Shown here piece after piece: positions 2,428 to 55,028 of a stretch of DNA of 64,000 nt. Both the position numbers and the translations under genes were made by a program. Source of the stretch: a virus. Within the stretch, counting starts at the first letter, position 1, and each line of letters opens with the position of its first letter. The stretch lies in IMG/VR virus record IMGVR_UViG_3300031227_000038, positions 1 through 64,000 of that record. The stretch is one strand, 5' to 3'. The notes under the pieces were generated by a model. That model worked only from the letters and a program-made list of their open reading frames with translations, did not search any database and was not told the origin of the DNA.

Positions 2428-2454
2428 TTTAATAACCTCCAAGTTATATTTTTT

Positions 2455-2505: not shown

Positions 2506-2509
2506 TTTT

Positions 2510-3460: not shown

Positions 3461-3466
3461 TTAATT

Positions 3467-5618: not shown

Positions 5619-5787
5619 AAATTTATTTTCCTTCTTTCTTTTAATTATAATAAAATAATGCCCTTTCTTATACTACAATGATAATATAAAAGAAAAGGCA
5701 AAAATAGTAAGTTATTTATTATAAAAATTTAGCTATTTAGTCAACCAATCACTCATACAAACTCTCATAATAAGTTACAGCTTTAAT

Positions 5788-6456
5788 TCAATCTTGTAAC
5801 TCATATAGAGGATCGATTTCATCGTTATCTAAAAACGCCTCTGTACGTTCGACGCAGGTGCCGCATTTTCCACAAGGACTCTCTTCACCACGATAACAGC
5901 TCCAAGTTAGCTCATATGGAACATCTAATTCAAATCCCAATTCACATATATCACTCTTACTCATATTTATAAATGGCGCCATTAACTTAACTCTATTATA
6001 TGTTCCTTCACACGCAGCGGATTTAAACGCATCAATAAATGATTTACGACAATCTGGATAAACTGCGTGATCACCTGCATGATTTCCTAAGAAAATTGAG
6101 CCAATGTCATTTGCTTCTGCATATGCCGTTAGTACTGATAAAAGTATTCCATTTCTAAATGGAACTACAGTAGATTTCATATTATCTTTAGCATAATGAC
6201 CTTCGGGTATCTCATCTGCTCCTGAAGTTAAGCTACTGTTAGAGATCTTATTTAAAAAATCTAATTTAATAATTTCAAACGGTACCCCGAGCTCTTCACA
6301 TTGTAGTTTTGCAAACCCTAGTTCCTTCTTATGATTTTGTCCATAGTCAAATGCTATAGCTTTCATATCATAGCCGAGATCAATGATAGCGTGATACAAT
6401 AATGTCGTACTATCCATTCCACCAGATAATGCTATTAGTCCTTTTTTCTTTTCCAT
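5788..6456 (-). CDS. queC: 7-cyano-7-deazaguanine synthase QueC
   Basis: LIALSGGMDSTT PP-loop, and a C-terminal CGKCGTC zinc motif. Confidence 0.9.
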   Translation of the reverse strand: MEKKKGLIALSGGMDSTTLLYHAIIDLGYDMKAIAFDYGQNHKKELGFAKLQCEELGVPFEIIKLDFLNKISNSSLTSGADEIPEGHYAKDNMKSTVVPFRNGILLSVLTAYAEANDIGSIFLGNHAGDHAVYPDCRKSFIDAFKSAACEGTYNRVKLMAPFINMSKSDICELGFELDVPYELTWSCYRGEESPCGKCGTCVERTEAFLDNDEIDPLYELQD

Positions 6457-6966
6457 TTATTTTTCCTTTTTATCTTTTATAATAACTTCACTATCAATTA
6501 TTTCATCTGAGCTTCCAAATCCGTTTTCTCCACGAATTGTTTCCACTTCATTAAATTCCTCTTCCGTAATTTCAGTGAATGTAAACCCAGGTACTCTATG
6601 TACTTTACATTGTACAATAGCTTTTCCTTTGAGAATAGAAATATCTTCTTTCCCCAAATTATACATTTTTACAGATAAGGGTCCTTTATATCCAGCATCA
6701 ATAATTCCCGGATGAACTCTCAAATCATATTTGATACCGTGGCCACTTCTGGTTGCAAATTCAATATATCAACCTTCAGGAATTAATACTCTTAATCCGT
6801 TTGGTATCATAGCACTTTCGCCTGCGGGAATTACGGTATTTCTAATCGCTATTAAATCAAAGCAAGCACTAGTGCCTTCATAAGCTACACACGGCATAAC
6901 AGCTCTTTTATCTTCTCTTCAAAATTTAAGTTCTAACTCTCTTCAAATTACTACATTATCTATCAT
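6457..6966 (-). CDS. dut: dUTPase
   Basis: Motifs TRSGHGIKY and HPGIIDAGYKG are present. The ORF extends upstream of the listed 88-aa piece through three in-frame TGA codons (IWRE, KFWRED, EGWYIE) to the ATG at 6964-6966. Confidence 0.8.
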
Positions 6967-7109
6967 CTACTAACTCCTCAACAATTCCTAAAAACTCAGA
7001 GCCTATTAATATAATAACTCCAACTGTAATGCTAAATATAAGCGCTACATATCCGAATCCTCTTAACATTGATTTAGCCATGCTAACATCAAAATGATTT
7101 ATCTTCATA

Positions 7110-7772
7110 CTATACTCCTCTTTTATCGTTCCATATAGAGACCTGGATTCTTGGACTATAATTCCAGCCATTTTCTAGCGCCCATTTAATTACCTGTTTG
7201 TTTTTCAATTGTTGAGATTCTGCAGTTATGCCTTCTGGCATTAAGTATATTTGACTTTTGTTAACTTCATACTCTAGATCATCTAATAAACTTTTTATTT
7301 CTTCAATATCTTCTTCTTTATCAACTACAAACTTAAGTATACTATTGTCCCAATAACCACCGTAGGTCTCTAGTACATTTAAATTTATTCTCTTTTCATA
7401 AGGTTCACCAGAATTGCTTAGTTTTGGAGATACGTTGTAATAAATAAAATCGTCAAATACTGCCGGCATAATTGTACCATTAGTTTCAATTTCTATATGA
7501 AAGTCTACAGGTAACTCTCCAATTAGTTTAGTAATCTCTTCCTTTTGTAAAAGAGGCTCTCCGCCAGTAATTACTATACCGTTTGCAGCTTTCAATCTAA
7601 TATATTCAACAATTTTATCTACACTAATATTAGCACCTTCATTCCAACTGTAAGTAGAATCGCAAAAGTTGCATTTCAAATTACATTTTGCTAATCTTAA
7701 AAATACAACATTCATTCCAACAGATTGAGATTCGCCTTGAATTGAATGAAACATTTCAATATATTTAAACAT
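7110..7772 (-). CDS. queE: 7-carboxy-7-deazaguanine synthase QueE (radical SAM)
   Basis: CNLKCNFCDS cluster motif, and ITGGEPLL. Confidence 0.85.
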   Translation of the reverse strand: MFKYIEMFHSIQGESQSVGMNVVFLRLAKCNLKCNFCDSTYSWNEGANISVDKIVEYIRLKAANGIVITGGEPLLQKEEITKLIGELPVDFHIEIETNGTIMPAVFDDFIYYNVSPKLSNSGEPYEKRINLNVLETYGGYWDNSILKFVVDKEEDIEEIKSLLDDLEYEVNKSQIYLMPEGITAESQQLKNKQVIKWALENGWNYSPRIQVSIWNDKRGV

Positions 7773-8145
7773 TAAAATCTCCATATTGACAATATGTCTC
7801 TTTCCCAACTGCAGTTTCGTATACTCTTACTACGAACTGTAACATTGGATTTTCGCTTACTAATTCTTTATAAAATTGTATACACAAATTTTCTGCAGTT
7901 GCATTTTTTTTATCAAATGGTGGAATTTCATTAATAAATTGATGATCATATTTTTCATGTAATTGTTTTATATTACCGAAATCGAATAATATTCCAACTT
8001 CATCTCTCTGGTCTACATTACCTTCAATCCAAATTGATATTTTCCAAGAGTGTCCATGCATATTACTACACTTGCCGTCATATCCTCTTAGCTGATGGCA
8101 ACTGTCAAGAATTGTCTCTGTATAAAGTCTTAATTTTTTTTGCAT
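7765..8145 (-). CDS. queD: 6-carboxy-5,6,7,8-tetrahydropterin synthase QueD
   Basis: CSNMHGHSW, the CxxxHGH zinc motif. Confidence 0.85.
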   Translation of the reverse strand: MQKKLRLYTETILDSCHQLRGYDGKCSNMHGHSWKISIWIEGNVDQRDEVGILFDFGNIKQLHEKYDHQFINEIPPFDKKNATAENLCIQFYKELVSENPMLQFVVRVYETAVGKETYCQYGDFNV

Positions 8146-9383: not shown

Positions 9384-9827
9384 TTACCTATCTTTTCCGA
9401 CATTTACTGTCTCCTTATCTTCTCTATAATAAAAGTATTTAAAATGTGGTGTAAATCCTTCATTTATTTTTTCATTCCAGATGCCTGGAAAAATCTTTGC
9501 TTTTTTTAAATAGCCTTGAATATTTTTAGCGCCAACCGGATTCATTGAATGAATAATTATATGTGTGTCAGCTGCCTTAGCTGTATCAAGTCCATTTATA
9601 TTTTCTGTTTGATACATCCATTTTGCTATATCAATTGCATCCCCGCCTGGTCCTAGATCATGATCAAAGAAAATAATATCATATTTATTTTCGCTAAGAT
9701 AATCAATTGCTTCTTCGACATTATTTGTGTATGTAAGTTTTTGTTTGAATTTAAAAGCATTCTTAAACTTAATCATTCTCTTTGAATCATCCTCTATGAT
9801 TAATATTAATCTTTCTCCATCAAGCAT
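9384..9827 (-). CDS. CheY-like receiver (REC) domain protein
   Basis: LILIIEDD...IIFFDHDLG, the acidic pocket and a phospho-acceptor Asp pattern. Confidence 0.55.
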   Translation of the reverse strand: MLDGERLILIIEDDSKRMIKFKNAFKFKQKLTYTNNVEEAIDYLSENKYDIIFFDHDLGPGGDAIDIAKWMYQTENINGLDTAKAADTHIIIHSMNPVGAKNIQGYLKKAKIFPGIWNEKINEGFTPHFKYFYYREDKETVNVGKDR

Positions 9828-10576: not shown

Positions 10577-12031
10577 TTATACATTATCTTTTACCTCTCT
10601 TAATTTTCTTTCCATTTCATCAAAATTCCAATTACATTCTGCTTTCGTATTAAGTAAACCAACCATAACATTTTTTCTTGTAGTATCTGGAAACTCTAAC
10701 ATATAATTTTCGATTCTTCGAAGAATCTCTCCAACTACTTTACCTGGCTTAATATCAAGAACTTCCATAATATCATTTCCATCAACTGGAATATTAATCT
10801 TATCTGTACCTTCATCTTTCAATTGTTCAATTCTCTTATAGATATTACTTACTTGATTCTCCATTATCCAATCAGGATGATGTGATTTATTATCTGCATC
10901 TACAAGTCTTAAAAGATCATCTAGGTGCTTCATTCTTCTTATTAATTTTCTAATAGATGAATCCTTAACAATAACTTCATCTTTCCAGGACTTTACATAC
11001 ATATGATTTTCGACTAAGAAAGTGATATAGTCAACATCATTGTTAGAAAACCTAAGTCCTTCTAATATAGTTTTTGCTATCTGAGCGCCAACTAATTCAT
11101 GCTTACGAAAATGAAACATCCCGTCTTCTCCAGCTGCTACTGTATCTATCTTTCCAATATCGTGTAGGAGTGCTGCTATCTTTTCTAAAGCACCTCCGCC
11201 ATTATCTTCTACCTTATCAACAACTTTTAAAGTATGTATAAGAGCATTGTCAGTATGATATTTGTTTAGCGGCATCTGCTTTAAATGATTAATATTATAT
11301 CCAAACATAAAATTTAACCAGTCGATGCTTTCCGCAATGCGAATAAAATTAGAGAAATTTTTACTACTTGCAGCTTTAATAATTTCATCTTTAATTCTTT
11401 CCTTACTAATATTATCAGCAAGTAAAATTGCTTGCATCATAGCATCTATAGTATAAAAATCAATCTTGAAATCATATCTTGCTGCAAATCTAAATCCTCT
11501 GATTACTCTCAGAGTATCTTCTTCGAATCTTTCAGTGGCATTTCCAACAGTTTTTATAATTTTATTTTTAAGATCGCTTTGCCCATTAAATGGGTCAATA
11601 ATTACATCAGGATAGTTCATATCAATTGCCATTGCATTGATTGTAAAATCTCTTCGGGATAAGTCTTCTTCAATTGTCTTTGCAAACTTAACATCTGTAT
11701 GACGCCCGTCACAATTATGATCAGTTCTGAAAGTTGTAATTTCAAATATTGAACCACTCACTCCAATCATTATAAATGTTACAGTACCAAATGCTGAGCC
11801 AGTATCAATTACTTTATATAATGCCTTATCCTCTGATAGTACGCAATTCCAACCTAACATTTCCGCCGGAGTTGCGTCAGTGGCAAAATCATAATCATGC
11901 GGCTCATTTCCAAGAACCAGATCTCTAACAGCTCCGCCTACTAGAAATAGTTGACGACCTTTAACATTAAAGACACCTTTTAGTACTCTAATATCTTCTG
12001 TCATTATAATTTTTTTCTTAATACTAACCAT
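10577..12031 (-). CDS. cca: CCA-adding tRNA nucleotidyltransferase with HD domain
   Basis: GGAVRDLVLG...DYDFATDA head motifs, and LLHDIGK in the HD domain. Confidence 0.85.
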   Translation of the reverse strand: MVSIKKKIIMTEDIRVLKGVFNVKGRQLFLVGGAVRDLVLGNEPHDYDFATDATPAEMLGWNCVLSEDKALYKVIDTGSAFGTVTFIMIGVSGSIFEITTFRTDHNCDGRHTDVKFAKTIEEDLSRRDFTINAMAIDMNYPDVIIDPFNGQSDLKNKIIKTVGNATERFEEDTLRVIRGFRFAARYDFKIDFYTIDAMMQAILLADNISKERIKDEIIKAASSKNFSNFIRIAESIDWLNFMFGYNINHLKQMPLNKYHTDNALIHTLKVVDKVEDNGGGALEKIAALLHDIGKIDTVAAGEDGMFHFRKHELVGAQIAKTILEGLRFSNNDVDYITFLVENHMYVKSWKDEVIVKDSSIRKLIRRMKHLDDLLRLVDADNKSHHPDWIMENQVSNIYKRIEQLKDEGTDKINIPVDGNDIMEVLDIKPGKVVGEILRRIENYMLEFPDTTRKNVMVGLLNTKAECNWNFDEMERKLREVKDNV

Positions 12032-12185
12032 CTTAATAACCTCCAAGTTATTTTTTAATCTCATATATATAATATAAACTAATTATAAAAAATAGTAACT
12101 TATTTTTAAAAAAAAGAGAGAAGGAACATGTCAAAAATCCTTCTCTCCCACCCCTACGGTGTGAATGTAAACCAATTACACTAAT

Positions 12186-16555: not shown

Positions 16556-17551
16556 TCTAATTAACCTCCGTTTACTAATTTCATTAATAATATAATCAAA
16601 TTATAAAAAATAGTAACTTTTTTAAATTAATTTCCACTCTACCCTAACTCTTAGTTTATTGATTATTACATACCCAATCACATCATTTCTGAGTATATCA
16701 TATGAATCTATAGTGCCGTCTTTATGATTAATTTTTCCAATTTTAGTTTTATCTAATTCTTTTAGTCTTTTTGAAAACTCATTATTTCCTAAGTCTTTAA
16801 TCATATTACAAATATTATATGTTTGTGTACTTTGCAAGAAGTATAAGACTTCTTGTTGTTGAGTTACTATCTTAGTCATTAAACTTTTCAATTGTCACCC
16901 ACTCCTTTATATTTTCATTTAACTCTCTAATTTCAAGTTTATAATAGCTTTTTTTATTATATGAACTCATTGCATTTTGAGCTTGTTTAAGAGTTTTGTA
17001 TGAATTTATATAATCTAACTCATGATCTAGAAAAGATATTCTTTCTTTTTGTTCACACATTTTTCTTGCAGTTACAAAATCACCTAGATTAATGTACATA
17101 TCATAGAGATGTTGCCATGGCCAATTCTTACCATATACTCTAAAGTTTTTTTTCTTATTTCCAGCCTTTACATTTCTAGGTTTTTCTTCTGGACGAATAA
17201 ATGTTTTAGCTTTCTTAATTTCTTTTCTATCAAATTTTTTATCCCAAAACATAATTCTCCTTACTTAATTCTTTCATAAAGGCATTAGTAAATACTTTAC
17301 AGTGTTCGCCATTTTTTCTATAAAATGAAAAAGTTTTGTTTTCAATATCCCATCGAATATCATCAGGACCAATATTATGGAATACACATGCTCTCTGCAT
17401 GATGTCATTATTAACATCAATCAAAAATCCATATTGATTTGTAACTGTATATTCTAAAGGTTTATGAGACTCATTCTCTGTAAGATAGCTGGCTGCTGTC
17501 ATAAATCCTAGGCCAAATATAAGTACTAGAGCTATTATCCAAGGTGCGGTA

Positions 17552-17992
17552 TTACTCTGCTGACTCATATCCGTGCTCCTTTAGCCATTTTTTAATTACT
17601 ATAACTCTCTCTTTAATATTACCAAGCAACTCTGCCGGAGTTTCAGAAACGTGAATGTTATGCGCTGTTACGTCTAAGCTCTTATCAACACATCCTCCTA
17701 AATTTCCGAAACAAAATTTACATACATGTCTTTTATCAAAATGAATTGTATTAAAGCAATTTCTAGCGACTTCCCAAGCGGTCCAGCACAATATAAAATC
17801 ATCAGTTCCTAATCCAAATTTTTTTTTCATTACATATCTGCCGAATTTATCTGGTAAATAAGGTGATCTTTTTGTTATATCTGAATCGCGATATCGCTTA
17901 AATTCATCTTCATATACTTTGATGTCTTCTATAGAAATATTTTCATAACTAGATAATAGACTTTGAAAAGCCTCTTTTATTTTTTTGTGCAT
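17552..17992 (-). CDS. Cys-rich hypothetical protein
   Basis: CWTAW...CKFCFGNLGGC. Confidence 0.45.
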   Translation of the reverse strand: MHKKIKEAFQSLLSSYENISIEDIKVYEDEFKRYRDSDITKRSPYLPDKFGRYVMKKKFGLGTDDFILCWTAWEVARNCFNTIHFDKRHVCKFCFGNLGGCVDKSLDVTAHNIHVSETPAELLGNIKERVIVIKKWLKEHGYESAE

Positions 17993-17994
17993 TT

Positions 17995-18378
17995 CTACTC
18001 CTTAGTTTTCTCATCTTCAAACTCATCGTCAAATCCCTCTAACCATTCTTCTATATGATTAGCTCTTTCATTAAAAGCATTGAAAAGTTCGTTAAATGTC
18101 TGAGCTTCTCCAATATTAGCATATGTTTTTTCATGCACCCCTCCCACACAGGCATATTTCTTGCGATTTACTCCACATTCAATACCATAACATTTTGAAC
18201 ATTCTTCTTTAAAGGTTAAACATAAAATACAAGTTAGCGTACAGCCCCATCCAGTTAGTTCAGCTGCAACATCTCCCATGCAAAATTCACATTTACTAAT
18301 TTTTTCAATTTGCTCCGAAGTAATACTTCGATATTTCTTAATCAATTCTTTAAATGGTTCTTTATTAATCTCTTCCAT
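17995..18378 (-). CDS. Cys-rich small protein, paralog family member B
   Basis: See 16172..16555. Confidence 0.55.
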   Translation of the reverse strand: MEEINKEPFKELIKKYRSITSEQIEKISKCEFCMGDVAAELTGWGCTLTCILCLTFKEECSKCYGIECGVNRKKYACVGGVHEKTYANIGEAQTFNELFNAFNERANHIEEWLEGFDDEFEDEKTKE

Positions 18379-18772
18379 CTTTGAATCCTTTTAACCACTT
18401 TTCTATATGGTTAGCTCTTTCATTGAAAGCGTTGAGTAAGTCTTCAGCATCACGAGCATGAGATATTTTATAATATGTCTCTTCATGTCCATAATGTAGA
18501 CATCCTAAGCCATTATAATCTCCAAAACCTTCATGATACGCTCCATAGCAGAACATGCAATTGCCATTAAACGCTCTACATAATATACAACCACTTCCAC
18601 CAAAGCCAGTAAGCCTATACGGAGTAAACATTATAGACGACAATACACGAGCTTCACTAAGAGCGGAATCAATAGGATTAGAGTCAATATCATCTTCAAT
18701 CTGCTTCAAAGTAATACTTCGATATTTCTTAATCAATTCCCTAAACGGCTCTTTATAAATTTTACTTCCCAT
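18365..18772 (-). CDS. Cys-rich small protein, paralog family member C
   Basis: See 16172..16555. The start is probably MGSKIYKEPF. Confidence 0.5.
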   Translation of the reverse strand: MGSKIYKEPFRELIKKYRSITLKQIEDDIDSNPIDSALSEARVLSSIMFTPYRLTGFGGSGCILCRAFNGNCMFCYGAYHEGFGDYNGLGCLHYGHEETYYKISHARDAEDLLNAFNERANHIEKWLKGFKDGRD

Positions 18773-19132
18773 TTTCGTCCTCCCAGATTTTAGTATCTTC
18801 ATTATAAACCTGAATAATTGCTCCACCAAATTCGCGCTCAGTGTTATAAAAGTTAAACCATTTGATTGCTTCTTTTAGAGTAAGATTATCATTCATTACG
18901 TTCTCATCACGATTCATATTCTTACATCTTCTATAACATCTCAATACATATTCATGTGCTGCTGGTTTATCATAAGATTCATATCTGTAATATATGTCCA
19001 TACTAAGTACTTCCATTGCACATACTCTATAAATTTTTTTCATCTTAATAACCTCCAAGTTATTTTAGTTCCTTAAAATATAAAAGATCTAAATATAATA
19101 TAATTAGAAATTAAGAAATAGTAACTTTATTT

Positions 19133-20335
19133 TTACCCCTTTATTACTGCTAGCGGCATCAACTTAGTAACTACCTTGACAAGATCTTCCTGATTATACA
19201 TAACACTATTAATATCTTTATAAGCACCAGGTGCTTCATCTAAATCTCTTTCATGTCTGATTCCATGAATGATTTCTTGATCATCTAATATTTTAATTTG
19301 CTCATTAAGGCTCAATTCATTTTGAGCTTTGGTTCTTGACATCAATCTGCCGGCTCCATGAGAGCAAGACATAAAGCTATCTGGATTTCCGAGTCCATTA
19401 ACTATATACGATGGAGTACCTGGAGAGCCTGGTATAATTCCTATAGTTCCTGTTCTCGCAAGAGTGGCTCCCTTTCTATGAACTAAAACATTTTCGCCAA
19501 AGTGATTCTCCATTTGAGCATAGTTATGAGCTATATTAATCATGCTAGATAAATCAATAGTTTTCCAACTCATAATAATATCAAACGATTCTTTAATTCT
19601 TTCCATCATTAATGCTCTATTTGCAAAAGCATACTCAACTGCAAAGTTCATTTCACGAAGATAATTTTGAGCATATTCAGTACCAAACGGTAAGAATGCT
19701 AATTGATATTCTGTAGGAATTTGCGTATGCCAGATTTTGTTATTCTTAATAGCAATATTATTGTAATAATCAGCGATTCTTTTACCTAAGTTACGTGAAC
19801 CAGAATGAACCATTACCCAAATATTCTCTTCTTTATCTTTCTGAATTTCAATGAAGTGATTTCCACCACCCATTGTTCCTAATTGTGTCATAGATGCTTC
19901 ATAGCGACGAAAGCTAATTTCCCCGAGATCGTATCCAGTACGACCATTCATTAATTTTACCATTGCATCTATCTGAGGACTATTATGACTATTTTTTCCA
20001 AGTGGTATTCTTTTACGAATCTCAGCCATAATACGTAATATTTCATTACGTGGTATCTCATGTGTTTTCCATGGTGTTTTCACAGCACACATTCCACAAC
20101 CAATATCAACACCGACTGCATTTGGAATTACCACATTTCTAGTCGCTATAACTCCGCCGATCGGCATTCCATATCCTTGGTGACAGTCCGGCATTAATGC
20201 TACGTGTTTAAATATGAATGGTAGAGATGCTAAGTTTCGTGCCTGTTGTAATGCTCCTTCTTCTATTTCATTAAATGGTAGCCAATGCTTGATTGGTTTT
20301 ACTCCACTATCTTTTTCAAATATTACTCCGTTCAT
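19133..20335 (-). CDS. rtcB: RtcB RNA 3'-phosphate/2',3'-cyclic phosphate ligase
   Basis: ALQQARNLASLP, MPDCHQGYGMPIGGV and SHGAGR are hallmark RtcB motifs. Confidence 0.9.
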   Translation of the reverse strand: MNGVIFEKDSGVKPIKHWLPFNEIEEGALQQARNLASLPFIFKHVALMPDCHQGYGMPIGGVIATRNVVIPNAVGVDIGCGMCAVKTPWKTHEIPRNEILRIMAEIRKRIPLGKNSHNSPQIDAMVKLMNGRTGYDLGEISFRRYEASMTQLGTMGGGNHFIEIQKDKEENIWVMVHSGSRNLGKRIADYYNNIAIKNNKIWHTQIPTEYQLAFLPFGTEYAQNYLREMNFAVEYAFANRALMMERIKESFDIIMSWKTIDLSSMINIAHNYAQMENHFGENVLVHRKGATLARTGTIGIIPGSPGTPSYIVNGLGNPDSFMSCSHGAGRLMSRTKAQNELSLNEQIKILDDQEIIHGIRHERDLDEAPGAYKDINSVMYNQEDLVKVVTKLMPLAVIKG

Positions 20336-21550: not shown

Positions 21551-22204
21551 CTATCTTACTAAAAGATTTACTATATTAAGACTATCAAATATTATTGGAA
21601 TTTGTTTTTTAAACTCTTCTAACATTGGAATCGCTATTTCTCTCATTTGCGGATGCGCTGCTAGTGAAGTTCTAAGTTTAAAAAAATGTAACCACTCTCT
21701 TAAATTCATCGTCATAACTATTTCTGTCTTCAATGAATTCGGGAGTACACTTCTCGCTTCTTGTGGACTTGCACCTAATTCGACTAATCGGATATATGCT
21801 TTTTCAATATGTCTCATCATATCTGCTCAAATCATATATTTGCTAGCATCGTCTACTGTTGATTCTTTTCAAAATATAGGTTCAATGAACGTTAATTCAT
21901 TACCAAATTTATTTTTACTATAATTACAATATCTAGTGCTTTCCTGTGTGTAGCTTGCTAATCTATGTCTAACTATTTCGTGTGTTACTCCTCTATCACA
22001 AATTACTCTTACGGTAACAGAATAATGTTCTAATACTGATAAGTGACCTCTTTCAATTATCATCTTAACAAACTTAGCTGCAGAGTCTTCAGTTATTTTA
22101 TCTTCACTTTTATATGCAGTTCGACCTGCCTTCTCAATATGTTTCAGTAGAGCTCAACCAACTATCTCCGATTCAATTTCAAAACTTGGTTTAATTATTT
22201 TCAT
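21551..22204 (-). CDS. thyX: flavin-dependent thymidylate synthase ThyX
   Basis: HEIVRHRLASYTQESTRY (RHR..S) motif. ORFs 21869..22063 and 21551..21820 are joined in frame through TGA codons at 21869-21871 and 21827-21829. Confidence 0.8.
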
Positions 22205-24348: not shown

Positions 24349-25197
24349 TTAGTAATTTCCATATCTTTCCCAATCTTCTTGAGCTTCCCACCAATTAAAA
24401 TGTGACATCGGATGTAGTTTATGCTGAGAATTTTTATTTAGCTTTCTAATTTTTAACCAGGTTTTAATATGAACAGGCAATGAATAAGTTGAGTCTTCCC
24501 ATCTTGCATCCATCCATTCATATAACTCTATATTAGTCAAATTATGACGATATTGTTCAATTACAGTATCAAGTTCGGCATATAAAAATCCCAGCTCATC
24601 TTCATCAGTTTGTCCGTCCCATAATCCTGCAGTAGGTACTTTATTAAGAATCTCTGCTGGTAGTCCTAATTTCTCTCCCCATTTCCAAACTTCAGTCTTT
24701 GTAAGATGAACTATTGGAGCAATATCTCCAGCAGCGTCACCATATTTAGTTTCATAGCCAACAAGTGTTTCTGACATATTACAAGTATTTAAAACGAGAG
24801 CGTTAAATCTTGCTGCTGAATTATAGAGTTGTGTCATCCTTATTCTTGCCATAATGTTTCCTTTACGATAGTTGTCCTTTTCTGAAAACGAATCAACCGT
24901 TTCTTTAATGCTCATTTCAATATAATGTCCATCTAGTCCAAGACTATCAAGATAATCGTCAGCAGGTATTAAATTACCTACATGCTCGAAATACGGAAGC
25001 TTATATGCAAAAACATGATCACTTCCAACTGCCATTACTGCCAACACTGTAACAAGTGCGGAATCGATTCCTCCAGAATATCCAATTATGTAATTCTTTT
25101 TTCCTGAGTCTGCTAATTTTCTCTCTAGGAAGTTAATTACTTTTTTAATTGGTCGATTTTCATTTAAAATTCGCCCATAGTTTACCTTACTATACAT
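24349..25197 (-). CDS. nadE: NH3-dependent NAD+ synthetase NadE
   Basis: YIIGYSGGIDSALV PP-loop. Confidence 0.85.
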   Translation of the reverse strand: MYSKVNYGRILNENRPIKKVINFLERKLADSGKKNYIIGYSGGIDSALVTVLAVMAVGSDHVFAYKLPYFEHVGNLIPADDYLDSLGLDGHYIEMSIKETVDSFSEKDNYRKGNIMARIRMTQLYNSAARFNALVLNTCNMSETLVGYETKYGDAAGDIAPIVHLTKTEVWKWGEKLGLPAEILNKVPTAGLWDGQTDEDELGFLYAELDTVIEQYRHNLTNIELYEWMDARWEDSTYSLPVHIKTWLKIRKLNKNSQHKLHPMSHFNWWEAQEDWERYGNY

Positions 25198-25541
25198 CTA
25201 TATACTCCTCGTTTTCTTTAATTTTTAAGTTATGTCATAACTTTTAACATAATGTGGTGTTGGAGAGTCATCTATTCTCCATACATCTATTTTTGTACCA
25301 GAAAAAGATACAGAAAATAGAGTTTCAGGAAGCTTTTCAAACTTAAAAACCACATCAACTATTACTGTACTGGGTGGTGTTAAAATATTATTTATTCCTA
25401 TATGCGATAGCTCTTAAGGTTCCTTTTTCACATACAACAGCTTTGAGCTCTGAATTGATATGCATAATACAATTATACTTAAATAAACTATGATTAAAAA
25501 GTATAATTCTATCACCTCCGTAGCCTTGTCTAATAGTAATA

Positions 25542-26726
25542 CTAAGATTCTCCATTTACATGCTCCTTCATAAATTCTAAATAATTTTTATTTCTACACA
25601 TTGCCTTCTCAGGTGTATCTGATATTTTTACAACTGGCATTCCATTACACATTTGCATTTTAATTACAATTGACAATGGCTTTATTCCATCACAATCATT
25701 AGTGAGATTAGTTCCTATACCAAATGATATTTTAATTTTACTCTTAAACTTATCAAAAAGTCTTTTTGCTTTAACTAAATCTAACGAATCACTGAATACA
25801 ATTGTCTTTGTCATCGGATCAATGCCTAGCTTTTTATAATGCATAATAGTCTCTTTTGCAAAATCTTCAGGATCGCCACTATCATGTCTAACTCCATCAA
25901 ACATTTTTGCTAAATCAGCTGTAAAATCTTCAAAGAATTTTTTACTTCCAAGAGTATCTGATAATGCTATTCCTAGATCGCCTTTAAATTCCTTTGCCCA
26001 TAAATATAATATATCTTTCTGATGAGTAGGTAGTGGGAGTAATGCCTGTGCAGCCATTATTACTTCATGTGCCATTGTACCAATTGGTGTTAATCTATGC
26101 TTCATTGCAAAGTGAACATTACTTGTCCCAACAAACGTTACAGGACTTATTCCATATAATTCCGAAATTACTTTATCTTGATTTTCACGACTATGTCGTC
26201 TTCTTGTACCAAAATCTGCAAAATGAAAACCATCTGAACTAATATCTTCGGCATAATTATACTTTTTAACTAAACGATTTCGCGCTTCAACAGTCGTATG
26301 ATACCAATTACTTTGCTCCTTTAAGTCGTTTTTTTTATGATAAATTTCAGATATAATTGCAAGTATAGGAACTTCATATAATATAGTATTAATCCATAAG
26401 CCTTTGATTGTAATTGCAAGTTGACCATCTTTCTCAGTTACTCTTACTTCTTCCTCAGGATTAAATTTAAAGTTATATAACCAATCAACATAATCTTCTG
26501 ATAAGAACCTTAAATTTCTAAGATAACAATCTTCATCAGATGTAAGCTTTAAAAATTGTAGGTTACTTATTGCCACAGCAATATCGAGTTTATACGATCT
26601 TAAGTCAACATCAGAACGAATTGATAAGTCGTATTCGACCTCGACATTATTAAAGTTATGCAATACGAATTGTTGCATCGTAAATTTATATAAGTCGTTA
26701 TCTAGGATACTATTAATAATACTCAT
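25542..26726 (-). CDS. pncB: nicotinate phosphoribosyltransferase PncB
   Basis: N-terminus ILDNDLYKFTMQQFV matches the PncB LDTDAYKLHMQQAV signature. Confidence 0.8.
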   Translation of the reverse strand: MSIINSILDNDLYKFTMQQFVLHNFNNVEVEYDLSIRSDVDLRSYKLDIAVAISNLQFLKLTSDEDCYLRNLRFLSEDYVDWLYNFKFNPEEEVRVTEKDGQLAITIKGLWINTILYEVPILAIISEIYHKKNDLKEQSNWYHTTVEARNRLVKKYNYAEDISSDGFHFADFGTRRRHSRENQDKVISELYGISPVTFVGTSNVHFAMKHRLTPIGTMAHEVIMAAQALLPLPTHQKDILYLWAKEFKGDLGIALSDTLGSKKFFEDFTADLAKMFDGVRHDSGDPEDFAKETIMHYKKLGIDPMTKTIVFSDSLDLVKAKRLFDKFKSKIKISFGIGTNLTNDCDGIKPLSIVIKMQMCNGMPVVKISDTPEKAMCRNKNYLEFMKEHVNGES

Positions 26727-27346
26727 TATTTAATCTCCTTATGATGTTTTTTAATTCTTTTATACGATTCATAAGAAGCAACATCAATATGATGAAAGTA
26801 TTTACAAAAGCAATACGGACATTGCATAATCACAACTACATCATCATAATGATAATTAAATCCAATTATATTTGGCGAGTTATTTTCAGCATCTATTTCG
26901 GTAACATGACTTCCACAATCAGGGCAGGTGTAAATACCTGCATTATATTCTGCACCGGAGAGAGGTCTCTTGTCGCTTAATTCTAACTTAAACTTTTTAC
27001 TTGCCCAATTTTTACCAGGAGTATATTTAATTTCAGCTTCATGTTGATGAAACATTACCCTTCCAGTTTTAGGTTTGGTTTCTGCTACTTCAACACTAAC
27101 AAATATTCTTCTTGGATCAGGATTTGCTGGATCAATTGTATCATTATAAAAATTAAGTATCTGCTTTCCACATTCCTCTTCTGTTAAGGTTTTGCAATCG
27201 ATACCTTTTTCGTCCAACCATTCACCAAACCAGCTATCCCTGAGCTTGCTATAATGTGAATAGTCTATTTTTTCATTATGTATCCCTGCTGCGTATTCAA
27301 CATTTGGATGCTCTGGCACCCGATAAAATAATTTAAATACATTCAT
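26726..27346 (-). CDS. hypothetical protein with C-terminal zinc ribbon, inside the NAD module
   Basis: CPDCG...CPYC. No NMNAT HxGH motif was seen. Confidence 0.45.
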   Translation of the reverse strand: MNVFKLFYRVPEHPNVEYAAGIHNEKIDYSHYSKLRDSWFGEWLDEKGIDCKTLTEEECGKQILNFYNDTIDPANPDPRRIFVSVEVAETKPKTGRVMFHQHEAEIKYTPGKNWASKKFKLELSDKRPLSGAEYNAGIYTCPDCGSHVTEIDAENNSPNIIGFNYHYDDVVVIMQCPYCFCKYFHHIDVASYESYKRIKKHHKEIK

Positions 27347-27426
27347 TTTTTTTTAATAAACCTCCATTTATTAATTTCTACATATATAATATAATATAAT
27401 TACAAAAAATAGTAAAAATTTTATTT

Positions 27427-28074
27427 TTATATCTCGAAGACAACATCTTCAGAAAACGCAACTGTAATATATTCATAATCATATACGAGTTTTTTAATAT
27501 ACTTTATAAACTTTTTATCGTCTATGCTAGCAATTAAATCAAGAAGAACAACTATTTGTCTGCAATCTGATCTGCCATACTCAATTAATTGAACCATTCC
27601 ATCAAGCACACCCTTAACACAAATATCTCCAGCAACTCCAAATATAAATATTTTATCGATATTGTACATATCATCTATAATATCAGCTTCAAATGCACTA
27701 TTACCTTCAAATACAGAAAACTTGTTTTTATAATATACGGAAGCAAACGGCGGCATAGATTCTTCAAGTATTGCTTCTGAGGAATATTCATTTCCTGTTG
27801 CATGATCAATAAGCCACGATCCTTCAGTATTCCTAATACAATGTGGAGGAAAAGTATTAGTAAGATCTGGATGTGTTGAAATCTCTTCATCATCGTAATC
27901 ATGTAAGTCTGCTGTATACCATATTTTGTGATTCGTATCAAGAGCTCGCATGGCTCGATACATAAAGTCATTTACTTCTTCTTTAATATCTTCTGCTCCA
28001 GGAACATATAAAGCTCCATTTTTATTCATAAAGTCATTTTGTAAGTCAACTGCAATTACTAATGTTTTTTCCAT
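27427..28074 (-). CDS. pncA: nicotinamidase PncA (isochorismatase family)
   Basis: VIAVDLQNDF motif. Confidence 0.75.
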   Translation of the reverse strand: MEKTLVIAVDLQNDFMNKNGALYVPGAEDIKEEVNDFMYRAMRALDTNHKIWYTADLHDYDDEEISTHPDLTNTFPPHCIRNTEGSWLIDHATGNEYSSEAILEESMPPFASVYYKNKFSVFEGNSAFEADIIDDMYNIDKIFIFGVAGDICVKGVLDGMVQLIEYGRSDCRQIVVLLDLIASIDDKKFIKYIKKLVYDYEYITVAFSEDVVFEI

Positions 28075-28299
28075 AATTTTATCTATTAATCTCCTCTATT
28101 GCTATTTTAATTGATTCTTTATTCTTTTAAGAAGCTCTTCCTTGTTACCTGCAAAATCTGGTTATAGTTTCAACTTCTATTTCTTCTATCAGTCCCCTGA
28201 ATATTTCTTATTATGTTACCCAAATACCTGTTCTCATCGTAAACTCCAAAAAATAAAATACCCCGATCAGATGAGTAACATCTAAGTGTTTTCATAATT

Positions 28300-28743
28300 T
28301 TATCTATTAATCTCCTCTATTGCTATTTTAATGAAGTCCAAAATATCATTATTTTCAATTAGATTATAACAAATGAATTTATCTTCAAGATAACCTTGCA
28401 TATACTCTATACTATCATCTATTAATAAATCAATGTTGTTCTCTTCACAAATCTCAGCTTTGATTGTCCACCACATTTCATCAGAAGGAATCCACCAACC
28501 ATAAGAATTGACTGTAATATCAACCTCTGGCCTTGTTCTACGTACATGATCAATAACTGAGAAGAAGTCTTTAAATATGCTTAAACTATATCCATACTTC
28601 TGCTCTAATTCTTCCTTCATCTCGTCTACAGGTGTACCAGATATTACATAAATATCATGTCCGGCAGCCAATAATTCATTGACCACCGGAATTATATTTT
28701 GTACATCTGATAATACACCATGTATATCAAATGCTATATTCAT
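28300..28743 (-). CDS. HAD-family phosphatase, 5'(3')-deoxyribonucleotidase-like
   Basis: FDIHGVL (DxDGV-like motif I), ISGT and LIDDS. Confidence 0.45.
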   Translation of the reverse strand: MNIAFDIHGVLSDVQNIIPVVNELLAAGHDIYVISGTPVDEMKEELEQKYGYSLSIFKDFFSVIDHVRRTRPEVDITVNSYGWWIPSDEMWWTIKAEICEENNIDLLIDDSIEYMQGYLEDKFICYNLIENNDILDFIKIAIEEINR

Positions 28744-29673
28744 TTATGCAACCATCCTTAGCTGACTATTCATAAAACGATGTAACAATTTCTGTGATTT
28801 AATTGCTTCAGAATAGTTCTTCAACATTATATAATTACTAATGTAATTCGTTGCTGTTGAATAGAGTGCCCAGAGAGTATCTTGCTTAACATCTTCACTG
28901 TTGTTAAGTAAATACTTTTCTACGATAACCGGATAGTGCTTGATGAATGCTTTGTTAAATCCCATTAGCTTAAGTGTTTCAAGCATTGTGTCGTTGAATT
29001 TAACTTCCTGCATACGATATATTGATTGAGTTAATTCATTAAATTCAACCATAACCTTTTCATATGTTTCTTCAAAATTCAATTTCGTTACAATTGAAGG
29101 TGTGTGAATCATTTTCTGCATATTGAACTTTACACCAACTAACATTCCGTTTAAACATTTGAAGCGATATGCTCCGAAAAGAATTCCAGCTGGTAAACTA
29201 CCATCTGTAGAATTGAATATATCAATTGTAGGAGCAATATCTGATCCGTCAACATTTACTCTTACGTCATCAAAAACTACATTTCCGTATGCGCGATTCC
29301 GTCCTGGTCTTTGATCAATATATAGTTTTGGAATTGAAAAATTAACATTGTGTTCATCAAGCACTTTCAACACATTATCAAAAACTTCTTTATGTTGAGT
29401 TAAATGATAGCGATCACTTACAATTGTAACAATTCCCTCTTCTGGAGTGAGATCTCTCATTGCTCCACTCTTTTCGATTATTCGTCCAGTTCTGCGAACA
29501 GAATTGAATCCATTATAACCCGGATCATTAAGTGCATCTTTTAGTGAAACTATCTTTGTTTCGGTTGCACCAAAAATTGCAGGTAGATCTGCTCTTTCTA
29601 CATCTGTAAAATGCACTGACATATTTTTCTGTGCAGCTGCAACTGGATAAATCGTATCTACTTTTGCTTCCAT
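28744..29673 (-). CDS. hypothetical 309-aa protein
   Basis: Intact ORF preceded by the promoter cassette. Confidence 0.5.
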   Translation of the reverse strand: MEAKVDTIYPVAAAQKNMSVHFTDVERADLPAIFGATETKIVSLKDALNDPGYNGFNSVRRTGRIIEKSGAMRDLTPEEGIVTIVSDRYHLTQHKEVFDNVLKVLDEHNVNFSIPKLYIDQRPGRNRAYGNVVFDDVRVNVDGSDIAPTIDIFNSTDGSLPAGILFGAYRFKCLNGMLVGVKFNMQKMIHTPSIVTKLNFEETYEKVMVEFNELTQSIYRMQEVKFNDTMLETLKLMGFNKAFIKHYPVIVEKYLLNNSEDVKQDTLWALYSTATNYISNYIMLKNYSEAIKSQKLLHRFMNSQLRMVA

Positions 29674-29745
29674 TTTAGTCTCCTTTGTTTTTTATTTTCA
29701 TAATTATAATATAAGATAAAATCAAAAAAAAGTAATTTAAAAATT

Positions 29746-29820: not shown

Positions 29821-31413
29821 GGTAAGAAAATTTTTTTTAATAATTAATTTACTCCAGAGAAAAATTGAGCAGTTTAGGTACATCCTCATACTCAGGAGGC
29901 AATCTAAGCAGGTCTGGAGGTATACCTACTCAGCTAAATCATTATTATGATTTTTCATAAACCAGCATCTTGCTAATTCTTGTAATTCTATTTTTATTTC
30001 AAAAATGCCAAATTTGTTATTAACTGTTGGAAGACCCATATCATCGCCATCAAAATACAAATTTAAAACAACTCTTTTACTTGATAAGTTGTTTGGATCG
30101 TTAGTATCAATTGTTGCGTGTGCTTCAAGTTCTATGAATTCTGGTATAGCATCTTCATCTTTAAGATCGTAAAAGTTTAGATCAAATCCGAGTATTTCAA
30201 GATCTTCTACTGTTATTGCAATTCTGCTATAACTTTTTAACTCTTTAACTAAATCTCTAATTGTTCTTTTCATCTTAATAACCTCCAAGTTATATTTTTT
30301 TAAATCTACATTATATAATATAAGAGGAAAGTAAAAAATAGTAACAAAAAAATAAATTAATATCCAAATACTTTATCAACTAATCTTGAATATTCTCTAG
30401 AGCTAAACTCATTAGGATTTAATAGAACTTTATTATCTCTCTTCTGTGGTTTAATTATTGTGATCACTTCATCTTCAGTATGTAATGAATTTTCTAAGAA
30501 ATCATTTAGACGTTTTCGCGCACTATCAACATTCATTCCATATAGTGTTCGAAGACCTGTTGTATCATTTGTTCTATGAGCTAATTCATCATTATTATGT
30601 CTGTCTAATTCAATGGAACATTCGACAATATCATTTACGTATTCAGTTAGTGCGACTATAAAATTTCTTTTATTAATGTTCATTTATTTTCCTCTTTGTA
30701 TCAAAGATTAGTTCTTTTTATTTAATCTTTAAGCTTATTCCTGTATTTTTAGATATGTTATCTTCAAGCTCTGAGATATTTTCAATCTTTGTTCTAAAGA
30801 TTGATTCCTTTCCACAGTGTGAACAACGAGCTTGAAAATAAACATCACCACAATACAGACTTAAATTTTTTACTATTGATATTGCGCTATCAAACGGCTT
30901 ATAATCTCCATTACAGTATACACATTCCATTCTTTTACCTCGAATACCTATCGGCTATTCCTGATGAAGCCCATGCTTCATCTTTAATTTTAGATTCAAA
31001 ACCATAAGCACCGCACATTCCTACAATGCCTTTAATGAATTTACCAGATTTTCCACCCTCTGATAAGTCTAAATGAATTTCAAGCTTATCAATATCTATA
31101 CCATTTGCAATTAACTCTTCTGCGACTTCAATTGACATTGCAGCTTCTTTATATAATTTTTCAGCGAGTGAATATTTTTTATCTTCTCTCATTCTCTTAA
31201 CAAAGAAAATTCCACCGTGACCCTCATTTATAAGAGCTATTACTTGTACAAATACATGACGTCTTCTTTTAGCTTTTTGACTATCACAGCCAATTGCAAG
31301 ATATCAACCTGCTGCCATTTTCTCTTTAATTGTATTAAGTATTTTGCTAAAATCTTCTATAATCTCTCCACTTCCTGTAATATACATAATCTGTAAACTT
31401 CCTTCTTTTTAAT

Positions 31414-32603: not shown

Positions 32604-33362
32604 CTATTCATCTATGTTCTCCTTTATTTTAGATACAAAATCCCAAGACAATCGAGGTTCTATTCTACAACGATTTATAATCGATTCAGACTCTTCCGGC
32701 TGGGCTACACTAAAATCAACTACAATATGCTCTGCGGTTTTAAAAGGTTTAATATAGATATCGATGTCAATTCGCTCATCATCAAATAATCTATCATACA
32801 CCTCTTCAACAATATTGTTTTCATCTAACATTGACTTTAACTGATCAGTAGCTTCTTTTCGAAGAAGTTCTTCTTCATTTTGTTTTGCTTGAAGTCTTTT
32901 TACTTCATCTTCAAACAAATCTATAGCTTCTTGTAAAACGTGAGGCTCTTCTTTTCCTTCTATCCATTCTCCTGAACTATAAATACTTAGGAGATCACCG
33001 TCTAGCATTCTATCATAATCAGCTATCATCTTAATGAAGTTTTTACTTGCACTATTGACGAAATCGCTAACATCATTAATTATATAAATCGGCTTTCTTG
33101 CTGCAAATGCTACTCCAATATCAAAATGACTTCCAGTACTTCCTCTATCATACCACATCCAAACCTCATCACACGCTTCAATTGCATTTGAATTCTGTAA
33201 ACAGATTTCTAGCTCATTAACTGTTTGATCAGTACAAAGCAGCGGATCATAAACATCAACTCCTTCATTATACATCTCTTCTCTAAACTCTTCAATTGCT
33301 CGATTGATTTCGTCGTTTGTACGCCTAACTGGTCTAATTATAAAAATCTTCTTGTTTTTCAT
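32604..33362 (-). CDS. hypothetical protein (N-terminus resembles nucleoside 2-deoxyribosyltransferase-like fold, weak)
   Basis: KIFIIRPVR...DVYDP. Confidence 0.35.
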   Translation of the reverse strand: MKNKKIFIIRPVRRTNDEINRAIEEFREEMYNEGVDVYDPLLCTDQTVNELEICLQNSNAIEACDEVWMWYDRGSTGSHFDIGVAFAARKPIYIINDVSDFVNSASKNFIKMIADYDRMLDGDLLSIYSSGEWIEGKEEPHVLQEAIDLFEDEVKRLQAKQNEEELLRKEATDQLKSMLDENNIVEEVYDRLFDDERIDIDIYIKPFKTAEHIVVDFSVAQPEESESIINRCRIEPRLSWDFVSKIKENIDE

Positions 33363-48125: not shown

Positions 48126-48235
48126 TTATTTAATTAAAATTTCATTTTCCTTCCAGCTTTTCAATCCATATCTAATCAATATCATAAGTCTTCTTTCATA
48201 ATTTTCTTACTCTGCTTATACTCTTCGCTATAGAC

Positions 48236-49006
48236 TCAACAAGTTCCATATTGAGAGTTTAGTTTTCCAGCACTCTTACCTTTAGAGGACTTTGACATTT
48301 TTTGCTTAGTTTCTTCAGAATGATGTTTTCCTGTAAACATTCCAACAAGCTCGCCAGATAGTCGCCTCGGATCATTAACAGAAACGTTAAAAATATTACC
48401 ATATTTATCTTTTGCACTCATTCTACCTTTCATTATACTTACTCATTCTCCAGATAAATATCTAGGACTATCAACAAAAGTATTAAAAGTGTTTCCATCT
48501 TTATCCTTGACTGTCAGAGTATTTTTTGCTACACTTACTCATTCTCCAGATAAATATCTAGGATTAGTTAAATCTGTTTGAATTGTGTTACCGTTTTCAT
48601 CTCTAACGCTTACTTTACCTTTATTTACCCCAACTAATTCGCCAGACAAGAATCTTAAATCATTAACGGAGACTCTAAAAGTGTTTCCGTCTTTATCTTT
48701 GACAGCTGTAGTACCGGTTGAATGAGCTCATCCACCTTCTCCGCCTAGTTTAATATTATAAGTATCTTTTCTTTTAACAAACTCTTTGTTAACTATTTTA
48801 GTTTCCATTAAATAAGCATCTTCTTCGATGTCAAAGTTATATAAAATCTTTTTCTTAAACTTATCAACACCATATTTATTAACCAACCTATTTAAATATG
48901 TTCCTGAACCCATGTAGCCATCTTCAATATTATCTGTTGAATGCTTACCAATATAAATCTTATTATTAACAATATTCGTAATTTTATAAATAAGATGATT
49001 TTTCAT
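48236..49006 (-). mobile_element. GIY-YIG homing endonuclease with NUMOD-like repeats, contains in-frame TGA
   Basis: MKNHLIYKITNIVNNKIYIGK...GYMGSG, followed by four repeated ~35-codon modules (..VNDPRRLSGE..). Confidence 0.65.
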
Positions 49007-54476: not shown

Positions 54477-55028
54477 CTAATTAAAATTTATATCATCTAC
54501 TTTAACAATTATTTTTTTAATCAATTCAAAATCACTTTTAGTATATGCAACTATTTCAACCATTTCAACATTTTTATTTATTGTGTTACCAAATTCGACA
54601 ACCGAATTTAGAATTATATCAATTGCAGGCTCTTTTGGAAACATAAAAACTCCAGTACTTATTAGTGGAAACGATATACTTTTACAATTATAATCATCAG
54701 CTAATTTCATACAATTATATATTGTCTCCCATAACTGTTCAGGCGCTTCATTTTCATGACACGGAAATACTGGACCAACTGTGTTTATTATATATTTTGA
54801 TTTTAAATTAAAGCCTGGAGTGATCATCGCTTTACTAGTTTCTAATGCTATATTTCCTTTAATCCACTCAGCACAATAATTAGTAAATTCCATTCCTGCT
54901 CCAACATGAATTACTCCATTAACTGTAACATCTTCCCAAAATAAATATTTATTAGAAGCATTAACTATTGCATCAGTTTCTCTCTTCTCTATATTACCTA
55001 GAATTATCACTATTTCCATTAAAACCAA
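54477..55028 (-). CDS. macro domain protein (ADP-ribose binding/hydrolase)
   Basis: ETDAIVNASN...VGAG. Confidence 0.65.
   Translation of the reverse strand: MVLMEIVIILGNIEKRETDAIVNASNKYLFWEDVTVNGVIHVGAGMEFTNYCAEWIKGNIALETSKAMITPGFNLKSKYIINTVGPVFPCHENEAPEQLWETIYNCMKLADDYNCKSISFPLISTGVFMFPKEPAIDIILNSVVEFGNTINKNVEMVEIVAYTKSDFELIKKIIVKVDDINFN

Follow-up and report, generated by a model that had tools for sequence, protein, structure and literature searches.

Among the effector strategies of bacterial immunity, depletion of nicotinamide adenine dinucleotide (NAD+) is one of the most common. Phages have three described pathways for restoring NAD+, and for each of them experiments show that rebuilding NAD+ defeats NAD-depleting defences. 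NARP1 (Adps and Namat, joined in NARP1-AP by the macro phosphatase Adpp) and NARP2 (NadV/Nampt and Nmnat, from Vibrio phage KVP40; Osterman et al., bioRxiv 10.1101/2024.02.11.579819) were validated experimentally, and NARP3 (PnuC and NadR) was reported in Sci Adv 2026 (PMC13464706). None of the validated pathways NARP1-3 contains PncA, PncB or NadE. Clusters of the deamidated, Preiss-Handler type (pncB-nadD-nadE, e.g. Kuafu_71) have been published from jumbo phages (Microbiome 2024, PMC11662467) in a study that also notes phage pncA and suggests, as an idea it expressly leaves unverified by experiment, that such genes serve to counter NAD+-depleting defence; by its definition, a 'NAD-jumbo phage' has a genome of more than 200 kb with the complete gene set of one NAD+ pathway or more. 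We found no published test of the deamidated route in phages. Here, we analyse a cluster encoding PncA, PncB and NadE in a 64-kb stretch of DNA (64,000 nt; positions 1 to 64,000 of the IMG/VR record IMGVR_UViG_3300031227_000038), which as a whole is called the window below. With a probability of roughly 0.6, we read the cluster as a phage deamidating (Preiss-Handler-type) salvage pathway from nicotinamide to NAD+, the probable benefit of which would be the upkeep of NAD+, including after attack by NADase defences.

The cluster lies at 24349-29673 on the minus strand, as an earlier sequence-only reading of the window had placed it, and from 29673 downwards the order is DUF932, 147-aa protein, PncA, 206-aa protein, PncB, 55-aa open reading frame (ORF) and NadE. 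The layout is tight, same-strand and operon-like: a Shine-Dalgarno sequence precedes every gene, the stop of the 206-aa gene overlaps the start of pncB, the DUF932 gene abuts the 147-aa gene, and a shared promoter-like motif stands ahead of two gene blocks. The features are as follows.

24349..25197, minus strand: NadE, single-domain NH3-dependent NAD+ synthetase, 282 aa (PF02540, TIGR00552)
25388..25555, minus strand: unassigned 55-aa ORF with its own AAGGAG Shine-Dalgarno sequence, overlapping the pncB 3' end by 14 nt
25542..26726, minus strand: PncB, nicotinate phosphoribosyltransferase, 394 aa (TIGR01514, NAPRTase_N and NAPRTase)
26726..27346, minus strand: two-domain Zn-ribbon protein, 206 aa, with CPDC and CPYC motifs
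27385..27399, minus strand: promoter-like motif TTATATTATA 5' of the 206-aa gene, found by motif scan, function putative
27427..28074, minus strand: PncA, predicted nicotinamidase, 215 aa (PDB matches, catalytic and metal residues)
28300..28743, minus strand: cap-less HAD-fold protein with an invariant DIHGV, 147 aa, conserved PncB partner
28744..29673, minus strand: DUF932 protein, 309 aa (PF06067, E 3e-13)
54477..55028, minus strand: MacroD/YmdB-type macro domain protein, 183 aa (PF01661, E 2e-29)

The motif TTATATTATA is also found 5' of the DUF932 gene (29705-29719), of orf120, the next gene upstream of it (30309-30323), and of the macro gene (54441-54460), with 10 matches found against 3.15 expected, and is a possible phage promoter. 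Ahead of the promoter-like site of DUF932 stands a hairpin with a T-run after it. A scan for sigma-70 promoters returned no enrichment (47 against 46.7 in shuffles), and the long intergenic gaps gave no Rfam match to a riboswitch or structured RNA, with z-scores of -1.1 and -1.3. The 55-aa ORF, an uncertain member of the module, has no family match and is annotated as a gene in all metagenome copies.

PncB scores 436 bits against the curated family model TIGR01514 (cut-off 269.55) and contains both the NAPRTase_N and NAPRTase domains. All six of its matches in a PDB search are nicotinate phosphoribosyltransferases (best 1YIR, E 1e-100), and it retains the GTMAHE motif, including the phospho-His site His220. 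The profile comparison with nicotinamide phosphoribosyltransferase (NAMPT/Nampt) thus came out for PncB, as the sequence-only reading had proposed, and family models and structural homologues alike identify the protein as a nicotinate phosphoribosyltransferase rather than as NAMPT or Namat. NadE matches PF02540 (E 2e-55) and scores 186 bits against TIGR00552 (cut-off 63.65), with the P-loop SGGIDS (the SGGxDS PP-loop) at residues 41-46; its best PDB match is the archaeal-type, single-domain enzyme of P. horikoshii (2E18, E 8e-45, 157 bits), followed by that of F. tularensis (3FIU, E 3e-34, 122 bits). PncA is matched by the Pfam model Isochorismatase (PF00857) at 29.8 bits only. Six of its eight PDB matches are named nicotinamidases or pyrazinamidases, including M. 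tuberculosis PncA (3PL1, the top match, E 2e-10) and yeast Pnc1 (2H0R), and the other two are isochorismatase-family entries; in the alignment its motifs VDLQNDF (D10), DLH (D56, H58), PPHC (H78) and GDICV (C152) fall on catalytic and metal residues of these enzymes. The catalytic lysine is probably K116, because this residue is conserved in the homologues from two related phage contigs, L013 and L019, although the alignment is ambiguous at that point. PncA would therefore be a divergent nicotinamidase of isochorismatase fold, in which the Asp-Lys-Cys triad and the Asp/His/His metal site can be recognised, with the low model scores as a caveat. Judged by their motifs all three enzymes look catalytically intact, and the identities first given to them hold, with PncB and NadE passing their family cut-offs and PncA keeping the nicotinamidase motifs.

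To place the cluster among viruses, IMG/VR was scanned with a PncB alignment, giving 367 stretches, of which 80 were fetched and 66 distinct viral loci analysed; the counts that follow refer to genes within 8 kb of PncB. PncA is present in 48 of the 66 loci, NadE in 41 and an adenylyltransferase in 25. Both PncA and NadE accompany PncB in 36 loci, 20 of them without and 16 with an adenylyltransferase, and no other architecture is as common among the viral loci as that of the window. Dozens of unrelated viral contigs, with GC contents from 22 to 58%, carry the trio. The closest bacterial PncB copies are 44-49% identical to that of the window, 49% being the ceiling, and at the loci with the closest PncB in the bacterial genome collection PncB is solitary in 16 out of 17. 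Since the trio occupies 36/66 viral loci while the bacterial gene is solitary in 16/17, clustering of PncA, PncB and NadE is a viral trait, and neither a captured host operon nor a chance juxtaposition. One apparent phage match, 'Acinetobacter phage MD-2021a' (CAKLQH020000008.1), was rejected as phage evidence: bacterial housekeeping genes (serB, dtd, psd, phoBR) surround its pncB, and the sequence looks like a bacterial chromosome.

The islands of the relatives L013 and L019 add genes for a Nudix ADP-ribose pyrophosphatase-like enzyme, macro, NADAR and Tpt1 proteins and PnuC with NadR, and the ADP-ribose-handling genes among them point to the products of NAD breakdown as a theme. On the contig L019, positions 2042-7989 hold a NADAR fragment, the HAD-fold gene, Nudix, PncA, PnuC, macro, NadR (NMNAT and kinase) and PncB, an island that joins a NARP3-like pair (PnuC, NadR) to deamidating enzymes.

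The window is AT-rich (GC ~31%), with nearly all genes on the minus strand, and contains 25 tRNA genes and one tmRNA gene. Its ORFs include homing-endonuclease-like proteins and phage-family matches (RNA ligase, ATP-dependent DNA ligase, phrog_24834), and a nucleotide search against 50,697 phage records gave zero matches. Copies of the module were found on at least 23 metagenome contigs, the longest of 176,279 bp; every copy is 100% identical, which makes dN/dS across them uninformative. From the phage-family genes, the tRNA array and the at least 23 contig copies of up to 176,279 bp, we conclude that the module belongs to a large uncultured phage with a genome of at least 176 kb.

The enzyme that would adenylate nicotinate mononucleotide (NaMN) was already noted as missing by the sequence-only reading, and this holds under wider searching. 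The window ORFs, scanned with Pfam as concatenated chunks, gave no CTP_transf_like, NadD or NMNAT match. A custom NMNAT/NadD hidden Markov model (HMM), for which the adenylyltransferase-like ORFs of the fetched loci served as input (34 hits), found nothing in the six frames of the window, whether TGA was treated as stop (code 11) or as sense (code 4). No NadD was found in the ~8 kb beyond the window start, where genes for a DnaE-type polymerase and a PDDEXK nuclease were seen, so that the sequence covered for nadD amounts to ~72 kb of a genome of at least 176 kb. NaMN adenylylation is most likely supplied by the NadD of the host, or else by a phage copy elsewhere in the genome. The same window-wide Pfam scan returned no phosphoribosyl pyrophosphate (PRPP)-synthetase-like (Adps-like) domain, no PnuC (PF04973) and no NMNAT. 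An AAA_28 kinase-like protein (3467-3994), standing alone 20 kb from the module, was considered as a nicotinamide riboside kinase and rejected: its best PHROG is thymidylate-kinase-like, no homologue lies beside PncB elsewhere, and it has no tblastn match to the NadR of L019.

In the pathway we propose, PncA would deamidate nicotinamide to nicotinate and NH3, and PncB would combine nicotinate with PRPP to form NaMN, coupled to ATP through His220. NaMN would then be converted to nicotinate adenine dinucleotide (NaAD) by an enzyme encoded outside the window, most likely the essential host NadD and otherwise a phage copy elsewhere, and NadE would complete NAD+ from NaAD, ATP and NH3. The NH3 released in the PncA step could be reused by NadE, and we take the DIHGV HAD-fold protein to be a genuine accessory of the PncB step; flux through the pathway, its reliance on host NadD and this recycling of NH3 are all inferred. 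The most likely benefit would be that NAD+ is maintained during infection, including after SIR2, TIR, DSR or SEFIR proteins have split it into ADP-ribose and nicotinamide. The logic of feeding NADase-released nicotinamide back into NAD+, put forward in the sequence-only reading, is sound, and for counter-defence the pathway would be the deamidating counterpart of NARP2. Escape from NADase immunity is a plausible benefit, suggested by analogy with NARP1-3 and by the ADP-ribose-handling genes of related islands, and is not separable here from a general boost of NAD+.

The 147-aa protein is a partner linked to NAD metabolism. In motif I of HAD enzymes (D-x-D-x-T/V) the second Asp is the general acid/base of the phosphatases. 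The 147-aa protein has the Rossmannoid HAD core fold with motifs II (ISG), III (K95) and IV (D109-D110), while its motif I reads D6-I-H8-G-V, so that D-x-H replaces the canonical D-x-D; the His is kept in phage and bacterial members. Matches to the PDB by sequence were to de novo TIM-barrel repeats only and were discarded as spurious. At four or more further phage loci, stand-alone homologues adjoin pncB. In L019/L020 the HAD-fold gene lies within the island of NADAR, Nudix, PncA, PnuC, macro, NadR and PncB, the order in L035 is NadE, HAD, PncB, and that in L107 is PncB, HAD; at seven more distant phage loci its homologues have no NAD genes within 8 kb. NrtR is a Nudix-type regulator of NAD genes, made up of a Nudix domain and a winged helix. 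In Desulfobacterales the DIHGV domain forms the N-terminal part of fusions with NadD (e.g. Desulfonema limicola CP061799.1), with NrtR, or with both, in genes directly downstream of pncB (L113 1679-2659; L129 6001-7044, D. limicola CP061799.1; L130 6001-7116). An HMM of the phage members matches these N-terminal domains, which lie outside Pfam coverage, at E 1e-25 to 1e-29. Because gene fusion and conserved neighbourhood recur in two unrelated settings, the comparative evidence ties the DIHGV HAD-fold domain to NAD synthesis at its PncB/NadD stage, as a real, uncharacterised partner. What it does we can only guess: all three ATP- or PRPP-dependent steps of the pathway yield pyrophosphate and the HAD pyrophosphatase 3QU2 is among its fold matches, so it might hydrolyse pyrophosphate; its substrate might be a pyridine or ADP-ribose nucleotide, from which it would remove phosphate; or it might instead bind or sense a metabolite, as the NrtR fusions suggest.

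The 206-aa protein comprises an N domain (residues ~19-87), a disordered linker (92-115) and a C domain (118-204) that is a four-Cys Zn-ribbon. Residues 19-87 match stand-alone proteins of ~88 aa and residues 118-204 match four-Cys Zn-ribbon proteins of ~90 aa, which by homology makes it a fusion of two small-protein families. Its AlphaFold model (pLDDT 80) likewise has two small domains and a disordered linker, and a Foldseek search of the PDB with this model found nothing below E 0.8. Searches of Pfam, NCBIfam, PHROGs and PADLOC gave no matches, a PDB sequence search gave chance matches only, a word-indexed homologue search returned the protein itself only, and neither the protein nor a Zn-ribbon alignment retrieved anything useful when run against viral and metagenome contigs. 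L013 encodes a C-domain homologue flanked by pncA and pncB, just as in the window (identities to the window: Zn-ribbon 59%, PncB 60%, PncA 49%). Homologues of the N domain occur in L014 and L015, in each case two genes away from a Nudix gene, and more distant homologues have no NAD genes nearby. We regard the protein as a putative lineage-specific accessory, linked to the module only in close relatives and predicted to be co-translated with PncB. It has no (H/T)xGH motif and no Rossmann fold, and on sequence and model it is not an adenylyltransferase.

No DUF932 homologue occurs within 8 kb of PncB in any of the 66 viral loci, and the relatives L013 and L019 carry other genes at its position; the DUF932 protein is therefore probably outside the NAD module. 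Of the proteins that the sequence-only reading took for partners, a link to NAD metabolism thus holds for the HAD-fold protein and, in close relatives only, for the Zn-ribbon protein; the DUF932 protein drops out. The macro domain gene, also counted with the set, is real, but its distance of 25 kb and a promoter-like motif of its own place it outside the cluster, as a loose associate only. Macro genes are found within 8 kb of PncB in 7/66 viral loci, and L019 has one within its NAD island.

Several points weigh against the pathway and the benefit proposed. The adenylyltransferase step is absent from the ~72 kb covered. PncA reaches 30.7 bits against the equivalog model NF008623, far below its cut-off of 174, and the placement of its catalytic lysine is inferential; some of the IMG/VR contigs surveyed may contain mis-binned bacterial DNA. 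The four steps cost PRPP and several ATP and duplicate enzymes that are common in hosts, so that a plain metabolic boost fits equally well. Counter-defence is moreover predicted from the genes themselves. Our stronger version, in which the cluster would be a fourth, deamidating NAD+ reconstitution pathway that works through host NadD and escapes NADase immunity, with the DIHGV protein as a new component of PncB salvage of new activity, is offered as tentative.

A possible alternative, to which we give a clearly lesser place, is that the cluster is a general auxiliary metabolic module, raising NAD+ for phage needs such as nucleotide metabolism, RNA repair and NAD-consuming enzymes in a salvage-poor host, independently of any defence. 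The carriers are large phages rich in auxiliary genes, the window itself containing queuosine/deazaguanine, ThyX, dUTPase and RNA-repair genes; relatives have Tpt1, an NAD+-consuming RNA 2'-phosphotransferase; and the jumbo-phage survey emphasises NAD+-consuming phage enzymes and the complementarity of phage and host pathways (PMC11662467). However, the entry substrate, nicotinamide, is the product of NADases, relatives join the cluster to ADP-ribose-processing genes, and the DNA ligase of the window is ATP-dependent rather than NAD-dependent. The two explanations are compatible and do not exclude one another.

It is unlikely that the phage NadE is an NMN synthetase of the Francisella kind, which would take nicotinamide through nicotinate, NaMN and nicotinamide mononucleotide (NMN) to NAD+ using host NadR or NadM and so bypass NadD. 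Its second PDB match is indeed the F. tularensis enzyme 3FIU, which acts as an NMN synthetase and is only marginally active as an NAD synthetase (PMC3376133), and L019 has NadR beside PncB. The best match, however, is the archaeal-type 2E18, and NadE of M. jannaschii, from the same archaeal subfamily, is a true synthetase that uses NaAD only and is without NMN synthetase activity (PMC3376133). This alternative loses ground because the phage protein is nearer to the archaeal-type enzymes, and an adenylyltransferase would still be required, leaving the gap in place.

That the genes came from a host only recently, as cargo for which the phage is under no selection, which would have undone the sequence-only reading, we consider very improbable. 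The Trp codons of the module are all TGG (0 TGA among 23), against about a quarter TGA window-wide, which could mark a foreign origin, but TGA-free genes are the majority in the window, RtcB and RNA ligase among them. Against capture also stand the ≤49% identity of the closest bacterial PncB, the lack of clustering of these genes in bacterial relatives, the spread of the trio over unrelated viral contigs described above, and the intact motifs throughout.

Least probable of all is that the 206-aa, 147-aa or DUF932 protein is a non-canonical NaMN adenylyltransferase making the module self-sufficient, as the sequence-only reading had wondered for 26726-27346 and 28744-29673: the gap in the pathway would invite it, as would the 206-aa and 147-aa genes being so tightly linked to pncB, but the former encodes two ~90-aa domains with a Zn ribbon, no HxGH and no PDB fold match, the latter a HAD-fold protein whose bacterial counterparts are fused to canonical NadD and would thus complement rather than replace it, and the 309-aa protein is a DUF932 member found at 0/66 viral PncB loci.

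Other features of the window were recorded alongside the cluster. Three kb from the module, a 252-aa protein (32604-33362) has a weak nucleoside 2-deoxyribosyltransferase-like match (26 bits, below cut-off); on L051 a homologue of it (L051 12358-12729) is found at a distance of 3 kb from the cluster of PncB, PncA and NadE, and an annotated deoxyribosyltransferase (L011 10659-11111) lies next to the NAD genes of Sinorhizobium phage Phosso. A 7-deazaguanine/queuosine precursor cluster at 2510-8145 (FolE2, QueC, QueE, QueD) suggests DNA or tRNA base modification; the same interval holds dUTPase, the AAA_28 protein and two unknown proteins (3995-5618), one of which matches phrog_19058. An RNA-repair set is formed by a cREC_REC cyclic-phosphate-processing receiver domain, a CCA-adding enzyme, RtcB and an RNA ligase (9384-9827, 10577-12064, 19133-20335 and 37576-38742), and the macro protein could belong with it, relatives having Tpt1 as well. 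At 16872-18829 stand three or four tandem Cys-rich paralogues of ~125-150 aa (KPF.ELIKKYRSIT ... LTGFGGS.CILC ... C..CYG), for which no family match was found.

Several genes reach full length only if in-frame TGA is sense: thyX (21551-22204), folE2 (2510-3460), dUTPase (6457-6966) and the ORFs at 45140-45799, 48134-49006 and 60339-61187. There are three such codons in thyX, and six and seven in two GIY-YIG-like endonuclease ORFs; a GCHY-1 Pfam match is split over two code-11 ORFs. Most likely TGA is read as sense, as Trp, in some genes. Across the window Trp is encoded by 63 TGA and 185 TGG codons with a bimodal distribution, some genes using TGA only and most TGG only, including all NAD module genes, RtcB and RNA ligase. 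The tRNA array, one gene of which has the anticodon CUA, comprises 25 genes (40376-40450 and 32161-59508), and the tmRNA lies at 35372-35745. The anticodon-CUA tRNA is an amber suppressor, labelled 'Pyl' by ARAGORN, and no tRNA(UCA) that would read sense TGA is among the 25 of the window.

Three phage pathways for rebuilding NAD+ are validated, none by the deamidated route, and our survey suggests that PncA, PncB and NadE are the usual deamidated set of large environmental phages, often without an adenylyltransferase of their own. If the proposed pathway is true, it would be a widespread fourth counter-measure relying on one host enzyme, a testable vulnerability. The DIHGV domain is an unannotated piece of NAD metabolism amenable to in vitro characterisation, and the module genes, being TGA-free, can be expressed directly in standard hosts.

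Of the validated systems, NARP2 likewise starts from nicotinamide and PRPP and rebuilds NAD+. NARP2, whose counter-defence has been shown, runs an amidated, two-step route (nicotinamide, NMN, NAD+) with its own adenylyltransferase, whereas the window cluster is deamidated, four-step and built on PncB; its phosphoribosyltransferase is of PncB type and no NMNAT is found in the window. With NARP1 it shares the recycling of NADase cleavage products and the possibility of a macro-domain accessory. NARP1, however, uses ADP-ribose pyrophosphate and nicotinamide, while the window lacks a PRPP-synthetase-like Adps and Namat, its only phosphoribosyltransferase being the PncB equivalog, and its macro protein is of MacroD/YmdB type and 25 kb distant. 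NARP3 is also a phage NAD+ salvage pathway, and L019 carries its PnuC and NadR alongside PncA, PncB and the HAD-fold gene, but NARP3 imports nicotinamide riboside and the window has neither of its proteins. The sequence-only reading had counted the first two pathways alone as known, a list outdated by the 2026 report of NARP3.

Nor is the route undescribed, as had been supposed: the 2024 clusters (PMC11662467) and the annotated versions in two cultured jumbo phages precede it, and it is widespread in IMG/VR. Phosso has annotated NadE and PncB and a PncA homologue, and Agrobacterium phage Atu_ph07 has PncB and a PncA-like gene, as in the window; both differ in having an NMNAT-type adenylyltransferase and a Nudix enzyme nearby and no homologue of the HAD-fold or Zn-ribbon protein. 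Like the NAD-jumbo clusters, that of the window is a phage deamidated route to NAD+, clustered on a large phage genome; it differs in its PncA entry, in having no nadD in the window and in its extra HAD-fold DIHGV and Zn-ribbon genes, and set against the NAD-jumbo definition its longest contig is 176,279 bp and nadD was not found in the ~72 kb covered. Of the Preiss-Handler enzymes PncA, PncB and NadE are present, and a NaMN adenylyltransferase of NadD or NadM/NadR type was not found in that sequence. Desulfobacterales such as D. limicola (CP061799.1) have the same HAD-fold domain directly after pncB, but there it is fused to NadD or NrtR, whereas the phage domain stands alone and the adenylyltransferase is absent. 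The module is thus a variant of a described phage NAD+ pathway, one that has no adenylyltransferase nearby and adds a PncA entry and a conserved new accessory domain.

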